Source of the DNA: a virus | Taxonomy: Duplodnaviria; Heunggongvirae; Uroviricota; Caudoviricetes | Virus record (IMG/VR): IMGVR_UViG_2667527698_000005 | Reading direction: 5' to 3' (one strand) | Length of the DNA stretch: 5,942 nt | Shown: positions 2,025 through 2,203 of the stretch, in pieces | Numbering within the stretch: the first letter of the stretch is position 1 | How the letters are laid out: every line of letters begins with the position of its first letter | The notes under the pieces: generated by a model | Told to the model about the DNA's origin: nothing | Databases searched by the model: none | What the model saw: only the letters and a program-made list of their open reading frames with translations | Made by a program: the position numbers and the translations under genes

Positions 2025-2079
2025 AAGCACTCTATCCAACAAACCACCCACAGTTAATCGGAATAAAAGCAGAGTGCTT
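2025..2079. repeat. Perfect 9-bp inverted repeat (AAGCACTCT / AGAGTGCTT) with 37-nt spacer
   Basis: Arms at 2025-2033 and 2071-2079 are exact reverse complements, read directly from the sequence. Confidence 0.8.
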
Positions 2080-2150
2080 ATGAATGATCGCACGCCCGAA
2101 GGTTAGTATTTCTGCACAGCAATTTTGCAAAAAAAGGCGATCATTCATAA
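2078..2150. repeat. Perfect 14-bp inverted repeat (TTATGAATGATCGC / GCGATCATTCATAA) with 45-nt spacer
   Basis: Arms at 2078-2091 and 2137-2150 are exact reverse complements. On the minus strand the spacer contains a T8 run and a CCTTCGGG mini-hairpin. Confidence 0.85.
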
Positions 2151-2157
2151 CTTAAAC

Positions 2158-2203
2158 GTCTTTCAGTCACTCCGGGATTTCCCATCATCGCAGACTGAAA
2201 GAC
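2158..2203. repeat. Perfect 11-bp inverted repeat (GTCTTTCAGTC / GACTGAAAGAC) with 24-nt spacer
   Basis: Arms at 2158-2168 and 2193-2203 are exact reverse complements. The loop contains the small palindrome GGGATTTCCC. The element ends 7 nt before the N run. Confidence 0.85.

Follow-up and report, generated by a model that had tools for sequence, protein, structure and literature searches.

What is encoded by three perfect inverted repeats that lie, in the late region of a lambda-like prophage, between a masked gap on one side and a holin gene on the other? The question is raised by a stretch of 5,942 nucleotides from a caudoviral genome (IMG/VR record IMGVR_UViG_2667527698_000005; the whole stretch is here called the window), in which the repeats occupy positions 2025-2203 and form three hairpins, A, B and C, on the minus strand. 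A sequence-only reading had taken them for stacked stem-loops in the 5' leader of the lysis operon and had considered a processing site, translational control of lysis, a small RNA, or protein-binding palindromes. Comparison with related prophages gives a different answer: A-B-C is a conserved structured minus-strand RNA of ~185 nt, which travels with the tRNA genes on its upstream side. It looks like a widespread RNA family of which no description was found in Rfam 15 or in the open-access literature searched. That it acts as a stable, trans-acting, non-coding trailer RNA, processed off a tRNA operon, is in our estimate a slightly better than even bet.

Three hairpins with conserved pairing

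A repeat search of 1900-2210 recovers exactly the three repeats of the sequence-only reading and no others: arms of 9 nt in hairpin C (2025-2033 with 2071-2079, 37-nt loop), of 14 nt in hairpin B (2078-2091 with 2137-2150, 45-nt loop), and of 11 nt in hairpin A (2158-2168 with 2193-2203, 24-nt loop), all 100% complementary, with bases 2078-2079 common to the perfect arms of B and C. Perfect inverted repeats whose arms measure 9 nt or more and whose loops span 3-60 nt number five in the whole window, namely these three, one at the terminator tR', and one at the holin start. When 1918-2210 is shuffled 2000 times with dinucleotides preserved, 88 shuffles contain any repeat of at least 9 nt and 7 contain one of at least 11 nt; none contains a repeat of at least 14 nt, which bears out the earlier judgement that the 14-bp arm pair is unlikely by chance, and none contains three repeats of at least 9 nt. 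On the minus strand, the RNA 2210-2015 has a minimum free energy of -66.7 kcal/mol (z = -4.75, no shuffle being equally stable) and forms consecutive stem-loops on the late-transcript strand, as had been supposed. The stems are not ordinary intrinsic terminators, as also anticipated, since none of the three is directly followed by a T-run in the sequence; a terminator scan of the homologous stretch in locus L001, which also missed tR', found none.

The relatives total 111 loci, with ~48 distinct sequences. Already in the pair formed by the window and phage HK639, at 75% identity, every stem is kept through compensatory and wobble changes. For an alignment of 17 sequences, RNAalifold yields seven helices in three hairpins, with 60 consensus pairs; standard pairs fill 96.6% of the 1016 cells, against 39-48% when the partners are slid by 1-3 columns, and compensatory double changes occur at 10 pairs (59 cells). 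The observed covariation score is reached by 0 of 500 shuffles, and hairpins B and C, aligned over 31 sequences, agree with this, one pair taking as many as three Watson-Crick types. Because the sequences fall into two main clades, independent events are fewer than these cell counts suggest; ten different pair positions have nonetheless changed on both sides. Folding of the minus-strand RNA and covariation among related prophages, which the sequence-only reading had named as a check, thus both come out in favor of the pairing.

The predicted pairs also reveal the strand. They comprise 838 Watson-Crick, 143 G·U, and 12 A·C cells; G·U cells would be mismatches on the opposite strand, and the selected structure is therefore the minus-strand RNA, which has the same sense as the tRNAs and late genes. 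With a covariance model of hairpin A (R1), the minus strand attains 70.8 bits versus 22.2 bits for the plus strand. That the region 2025-2203 represents a selected RNA structure at all we hold to be very probable.

Hairpin A (2158-2203) consists of an 11-bp basal stem (2203-2193 with 2168-2158) with a two-pair GC/GU extension, an internal loop, and an apical stem UGGG/CCCG that closes a 4-nt loop; its helix 1 is 95.5% paired, with compensatory changes at two pairs. The internal loop fits the kink-turn (k-turn) consensus, 5'-GC GAU GA UGGG ... CCCG GA GU-3', with a 3-nt bulge GAU at 2189-2187 and the tandem G·A and A·G pairs formed by GA 2186-2185 and GA 2172-2171, set between a canonical and a non-canonical stem. 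Among 23 variants there is little or no change in the loop bases GAUGA and GA, the G·A bases being kept in 22, and such variation as occurs is of a type that k-turns tolerate (bulge GAA or UAU; third position U·G, U·U, or A·G). The box C/D pattern, AUGAUGG ... CUGA, is seen in some variants, and hairpin A of L121 reads GCGAAGAAGG, which is Kt-7-like. Hairpin A thus appears to carry a kink-turn consensus, its assignment to this class being made by sequence pattern, and adds a candidate k-turn RNA in Escherichia coli, a species which to our knowledge has no L7Ae-family protein. A hammerhead-like reading of the same hairpin (CUG..GAUGA) was rejected, as the core does not fit and Rfam gives no match.

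Hairpin B (2078-2150) has a basal stem of 14-16 bp, an inner 8-bp helix in which UUUUUGCA pairs with UGYRRAAA and which caps the almost invariant apical loop AAAUUGCUG, and a small CC/GG hairpin. Pairing reaches 96% in helix 3, where four pairs are compensatory, and 100% in helix 4, which shows one-sided changes only, the pairing being kept partly via G·U. Over 31 sequences one pair of hairpin B takes three Watson-Crick types (GC, UA, AU), and in L180, obtained in a scan anchored in hairpin C, the inner helix carries a double compensatory change. Hairpin C (2025-2079) follows without a spacer, with a basal stem of 8-9 bp and an inner helix in which a variable 5' strand, UCCNNNNAACY, pairs with the nearly invariant 3' strand GGGUGGUUUGUUGGAU, the pairing being kept partly by G·U pairs and register shifts. 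Its helix 6 is 98.5% paired, with compensatory changes at four of eight pairs, and three to four pair types per position are seen over 31 sequences. In general, the outer stems drift with compensation and the inner motifs are nearly invariant; for the B-loop 17-mer this invariance is partly apparent, as most relatives were gathered by an anchor in it, and the scan anchored in hairpin C returns a few variants of this motif.

The hairpins are assorted as modules, the sets seen being A+B+C, B+C (with B straight after the tRNA), A+B, and C alone. B+C can also adjoin the stop codon of an open reading frame (ORF) for a small membrane protein, and in L006, L031, L071, and L086 it follows small ORF stop codons without any tRNA; hairpin C alone is found in L164 (1944-2081), directly after an unrelated terminator and with a further compensatory stem variant. 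In L089 (~9650-9760) the gene of an IS3-family transposase interrupts the element after hairpin B.

The tRNA unit and its surroundings

On its upstream side the element adjoins a run of 309 masked bases (2211-2519, minus strand), and the conjecture that the repeats are the visible edge of something larger has proved right. Megablast against complete E. coli genomes yields near-identical loci (99.9%), from which the unmasked sequence, whose recovery had been proposed, can be read: the gap holds four tRNA genes in the annotation of NZ_CP011416, and the relatives show a promoter-like site within a 58-nt spacer and, after it, tRNA Ile/Met(CAU), Arg(UCU), Thr(UGU), and Gly(UCC). The gap interval measures 367 nt in L001 (3012-3378), L118, L128, and L130, versus 309 N in the window; either the source genome is without the 58-nt spacer or the N run is not length-preserving.

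The tRNA-Gly is annotated up to the base that matches window position 2210 in the alignment with the unmasked L001, and hairpin A therefore begins 7 nt past the CCA end. In between lies an A/U-rich single-stranded spacer (2204-2210, 5'-AGUCAGA-3', its first A being the last base of the tRNA-Gly CCA), which reads GU(U/A/C)A(A/G)A among relatives, where hairpin A almost always starts 3-7 nt past the tRNA 3' end. In the window itself ARAGORN finds no tRNA outside the mask, and the hairpins are therefore not tRNA-like genes; among the relatives it places a same-strand tRNA array directly upstream of the element in 101 of the 111 loci. The last tRNA of these arrays is mostly Gly(UCC), sometimes Met/Ile(CAU), Val, Glu, or Lys, and the loci without an upstream array have tRNA remnants or a small ORF there.

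The second tRNA of the array is peculiar in that one Arg-like scaffold bears differing anticodon loops among prophages (L001, L018, L035, L009, L019, L042, L104): UCU (Arg), UUU (Lys by anticodon), and the 6-nt CAGGUG, UAAAUG, AUAGUG, UUGGUG, and UUUAUG, the odd 6-nt loops being called by ARAGORN as Phe, as a stop-codon (UUA) anticodon, or as undetermined. They could reflect decaying pseudogenes or deliberate anticodon diversification.

Both ends of the array and element are marked by putative transcription signals. The 58-nt spacer carries a promoter-like TTGCAG-17-TATTAT, and TTGCA-17-TAT(T/C)AT recurs in many lineages of otherwise unrelated surroundings, ~9 nt ahead of the first tRNA. At the other end, 40 of 48 distinct variants have a terminator-like hairpin with a T-run, assigned by consensus match, at a distance of 10-45 nt from hairpin C, at least four unrelated sequences being used in this place. 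In relatives it reads GCCCGC-UUUU-GCGGGC followed by UUUUCUUUU; within the window lineage the 3' arm takes the forms GCGGGC, GCGGGT, GCGGTT, or GCGTTT, of which the last, found in the window, makes the shortest stem, with 3 bp left. This decayed intrinsic terminator of the tRNA/RNA unit (1983-2003, minus strand; GCCCGC-UUUU-GCG followed by U7) is a fourth small element that the sequence-only reading had overlooked. The shorter stems look like a stepwise G-to-T decay, and the longer U-run should raise read-through into the holin gene.

From the tRNA linkage and the promoter-like and terminator-like signals, promoter, tRNAs, A-B-C, and terminator are taken to form one unit. Its upstream boundary is tR' (2550-2575, minus strand; CCCGCC-UCCG-GGCGGG followed by U6), located downstream of Q, the hairpin at which the short pR' transcript terminates, where there are weak terminator-type Rfam matches and a perfect 9-bp inverted repeat (2554-2575). 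Judged by sequence and position, the unit would be a typical moron, inserted after tR' and before the lysis genes.

The distribution is that of a phage-borne module. A 293-nt interval comprising the element occurs in 540 of 5426 complete E. coli genomes (~10%), at a median of 1 and a maximum of 5 places per genome, overlapping with a tRNA-Gly annotation among the matches listed; the many copies in unrelated contexts that characterize dispersed repeats (REP, ERIC, box C, MITEs) are not seen. In phage phi467, an Stx2f phage, the order is stxAB, tRNA-Thr, tRNA-Gly, element, S, and the element is also present in three other E. coli phages besides HK639. Many further copies, among them ones in Phytobacter, Enterobacter hormaechei, Yokenella, Citrobacter sedlakii, and Shigella flexneri, come from pattern searches through viral contigs and through a single genome for each species, six enterobacterial species carrying the element in the latter scan. 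The element thus reaches about a tenth of complete E. coli genomes, several other Enterobacteriaceae, and one Stx2f-converting phage.

As a whole, the window covers late control and lysis in a lambda-like prophage, every gene being on the minus strand. A gene and domain scan gives a DnaC-like loader (4972-5850), a DnaB helicase (3584-4975), NinH (3035-3238), and antiterminator Q (2662-3042, PF06530 match) upstream of the unit; downstream, outside the A-B-C element, follow a P21-type (S21) holin (1702-1917; PF04971, E = 5.5e-35), an ORF of 209 amino acids (1069-1698) without a Pfam match (a RefSeq hypothetical, WP_001300760), a lysozyme (470-1003), and Rz (69-473). The 209-residue ORF separates holin and endolysin, whose genes usually abut, as in phi467. 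At the holin start, a separate perfect 9-bp repeat (1868-1876 with 1923-1931, minus strand) pairs the Shine-Dalgarno area with holin codons ~14-17; this hairpin may balance the two starts (Met1, Met4) of P21-type (S21) holins.

A proposed trailer RNA and its alternatives

The trailer reading can be spelled out as follows. In lysogens the unit would be expressed from a promoter of its own, and late in infection through read-through. Cleavage of the RNase E type, likely in the spacer 2204-2210 just past the CCA, would free the tRNA-Gly and leave a stable RNA of ~190-230 nt, reaching from the start of hairpin A to hairpin C or to the terminator; the basal stems would protect this RNA and define its ends. 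The near-invariant inner motifs, that is, the k-turn in A, UUGCAAAAUUGCUG in B, and GGGUGGUUUGUUGGAU in C, are read as recognition surfaces for host proteins or RNAs, from which it follows that A-B-C would act in trans, as a regulator, sponge, or decoy.

Several points weigh against this. Both the release of a discrete stable RNA and its function in trans are steps that we infer from the sequence, and the promoter is assigned by consensus match only. The window copy has lost most of the terminator stem, and the RNA may therefore exist here mainly within longer transcripts. The invariance of the B-loop 17-mer is inflated by its use as a search anchor; moreover, the invariant motifs lie mostly inside helices and not in open loops, which is unusual for base-pairing seeds, and complementary targets of the invariant B and C motifs, sought within the window, amount to self matches and otherwise stay at chance level. 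Finally, the RNAs of phage T4 that offer the closest parallel, rnaC and rnaD, are not homologous: blastn-short against them gives matches of at most 9 nt (E of 0.2 or more), and the hairpin A model R1 misses both at E up to 10.

Among the alternatives, a purely cis-acting role is unlikely but has to be taken seriously: the hairpins would be processing or stability punctuation that only guides the maturation of the last tRNA by RNase E/III/P and then, once the tRNAs have been excised from the long Q-antiterminated late transcript, shields the 5' end of the lysis mRNA, with no separate RNA produced. Such a role is favored by the short distance that hairpin A almost always keeps from the tRNA 3' end, and an A/U-rich single-stranded spacer beside a stable stem is the typical context of RNase E; the stacked 20-24-bp helices with internal loops in B and C may resemble RNase III substrates, and in the window lineage the terminator has decayed, with the holin start 107 nt downstream. 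It is at odds with the loci in which B-C follows small ORFs without a tRNA, or in which hairpin C stands alone, as in L164, all of which speak for a function beyond tRNA maturation. Furthermore, most variants terminate, leaving no downstream mRNA to protect in transcripts that are not antiterminated, and a generic protective hairpin would require far less conservation than the inner sequences and the k-turn show.

A more specific version of the trailer RNA, to which we give only a slender chance, is that A-B-C, and by analogy T4 rnaD/rnaC, are counter-defense or host-takeover RNAs that travel with rare-codon or anticodon-variant tRNAs, the k-turn-bearing RNA serving as decoy or sponge and sequestering a nuclease or RNA-binding protein of the host (such as a defense nuclease that targets tRNAs, an RNase, or an RNA chaperone). 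If true, one class of 'escort' RNA would be shared by tRNA operons from unrelated phages.

The original proposal of a structured 5' leader, controlling the translation or timing of the holin and lysis genes, is suggested by the window alone, where the element precedes the S21-type holin at the said distance and on the same strand; it has become very improbable, being largely refuted by synteny. The holin is the downstream neighbor in the window lineage only: in HK639 the element is followed by a terminator, STnc100 (RF02076), and two more terminators before the holin is reached, and in other lineages by unrelated sequence. Because this neighbor is not conserved, the element is not a holin leader; it moves with the tRNAs upstream. 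Translational control of lysis is likewise disfavored, as the 40 variants with a terminator have it between the element and whatever follows. Judged against leaders like lambda sdi, there is no conserved position relative to the holin start and the hairpins exclude the holin ribosome-binding site; this site and the start are already bracketed by the separate repeat 1868-1876/1923-1931. What is corrected here is likely an annotation habit, by which the region is read as a holin leader.

No better placed is a cis-acting antitermination RNA of the put type, which would modify the transcribing polymerase for read-through of the terminators that follow. A structured RNA upstream of one or several intrinsic terminators of the late region would suit such a role, and HK639 presumably uses RNA-based (put) antitermination. 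However, a lysogen would be killed if transcription from the constitutive-looking tRNA promoter ran on into the lysis genes, these phages have Q proteins of their own, and the modular loss of A or C is hard to square with a single polymerase-binding fold.

Still less probable is a feature of the DNA itself, be it a set of palindromic protein-binding sites or conserved linkers that promote mosaic recombination among lambdoid phages. The arms are indeed perfect palindromes in the window copy, and the module boundaries, seen in the presence or absence of A, B, and C, coincide with hairpin boundaries; but the arm sequences differ among lineages while compensatory changes keep the pairing, and the excess of G·U over A·C cells points to selection on one RNA strand, which speaks equally against the protein-binding palindromes of the sequence-only reading. 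A small protein gene can be set aside with near certainty: the 38-codon ORF (MNDRLFLQNCCAEILTFGRAIIHKHSAFIPINCGWFVG) that runs through hairpins B and C from ATG 2147 to TAG near 2031 (within 2031-2149, minus strand) is open in the window copy only, the frame is shifted among close relatives by its internal poly-T tract, which varies from T6 to T9, the ORF of the HK639-type sequence has 10 codons and lies in a different frame, and indels are not multiples of three.

Comparison with known RNAs

Scanned permissively against Rfam 15 (E up to 10), with AgvB, AsxR, Esr41, and STnc100 covered, the window shows no match in 1918-2210; the Rfam check proposed by the sequence-only reading thus yields no known family for the element. 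AgvB and AsxR (RF02702, RF02703), Esr41, and STnc100 (RF02076) are accordingly rejected as identities of the element, none of their covariance models matching on it. In open-access text, searches for the conserved 13-17-mers in DNA or RNA spelling return unrelated papers only, and literature on prophage tRNA trailer small RNAs (sRNAs) and on HK639 contains no description of an A-B-C RNA.

With several prophage sRNAs, among them STnc100/PasD, AgvB/AsxR, and PasA/PasC, the element shares its neighborhood, the zone of moron insertion between Q/pR' and the lambdoid lysis genes, which houses prophage sRNAs (PMC4104026; bioRxiv 10.64898/2026.05.13.724894). STnc100 occurs at gathering score beside the element and not on it, in L003 (HK639; 2754-2959), L071 (4106-4304), L065 (6582-7118), and L110 (6455-6567); it lies downstream of the element in some relatives, upstream of it or between the tRNAs in others, and is absent from the window. 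The interval from Q to the lysis genes seems to collect structured RNAs. PasA and PasC adjoin holin genes, and PasA is 84 nt long (bioRxiv 10.64898/2026.05.13.724894); AsxR is antisense to stx2AB, and the anti-sRNAs measure ~60 nt (PMC4104026). From PasA, AsxR, and the anti-sRNAs, A-B-C differs in being on the sense strand, longer, and linked to tRNAs. In strain E2348/69, pasA is listed on the minus strand and the flanking late genes, including the holin, on the plus strand; blastn of the element against the E2348/69 pasA locus yields chance matches only (E of 1.9 or more). PasA/PasC are ruled out by strand, size, and lack of similarity, the sequence comparison referring to the pasA locus of E2348/69 only. 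IpeX was dropped on the map of DLP12 alone, where nmpC has the opposite orientation.

Closer in kind is the 3' external transcribed spacer (3'ETS) of the glyW-cysT-leuZ operon, which is released at tRNA maturation, is functional on its own, and ends at the operon terminator; as 3'ETS-leuZ it is listed as an sRNA in an enteropathogenic E. coli data set. A-B-C has the same location, directly 3' of the last same-strand tRNA of an operon (at 2210 in the window, and in the 101 loci with an array), and an end at an operon terminator is found in the 40 of 48 variants mentioned above, the stem in the window being only 3 bp (GCG followed by U7). The difference lies in the make-up: 3'ETS-leuZ is short, little more than a terminator, whereas A-B-C has ~185 nt and three complex hairpins, and is phage-borne.

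The same layout, a structured RNA 3' of a same-strand phage tRNA cluster, is found in T4, whose rnaD and rnaC encode the species 1 and 2 RNAs. In the T4 annotation, 8 tRNAs, the last of them tRNA-Arg, are followed 1 nt later by rnaD and then by rnaC, the two RNAs being 119 and 139 nt long; all four anticodon species of the prophage array, Ile(CAU), Arg(UCU), Thr(UGU), and Gly(UCC), occur in the T4 cluster. T4 differs in being a virulent myovirus, and its RNAs are unlike A-B-C in size and fold, rnaC having a tRNA-like T arm. As a side observation, rnaD (L221 2054-2172, minus strand) has a CUGAUGG-UUC-CCUGAGU similar to the k-turn core in hairpin A (in L096, GAUGAUGGG-UUA-CCCUGAGU). We know of no function yet established for rnaC and rnaD. 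As in the T4 layout, the tRNA genes of lambdoid prophages would form self-contained operons that close with a conserved structured RNA, and a lambdoid counterpart in easily manipulated lysogens would make the question of rnaD/rnaC function testable.

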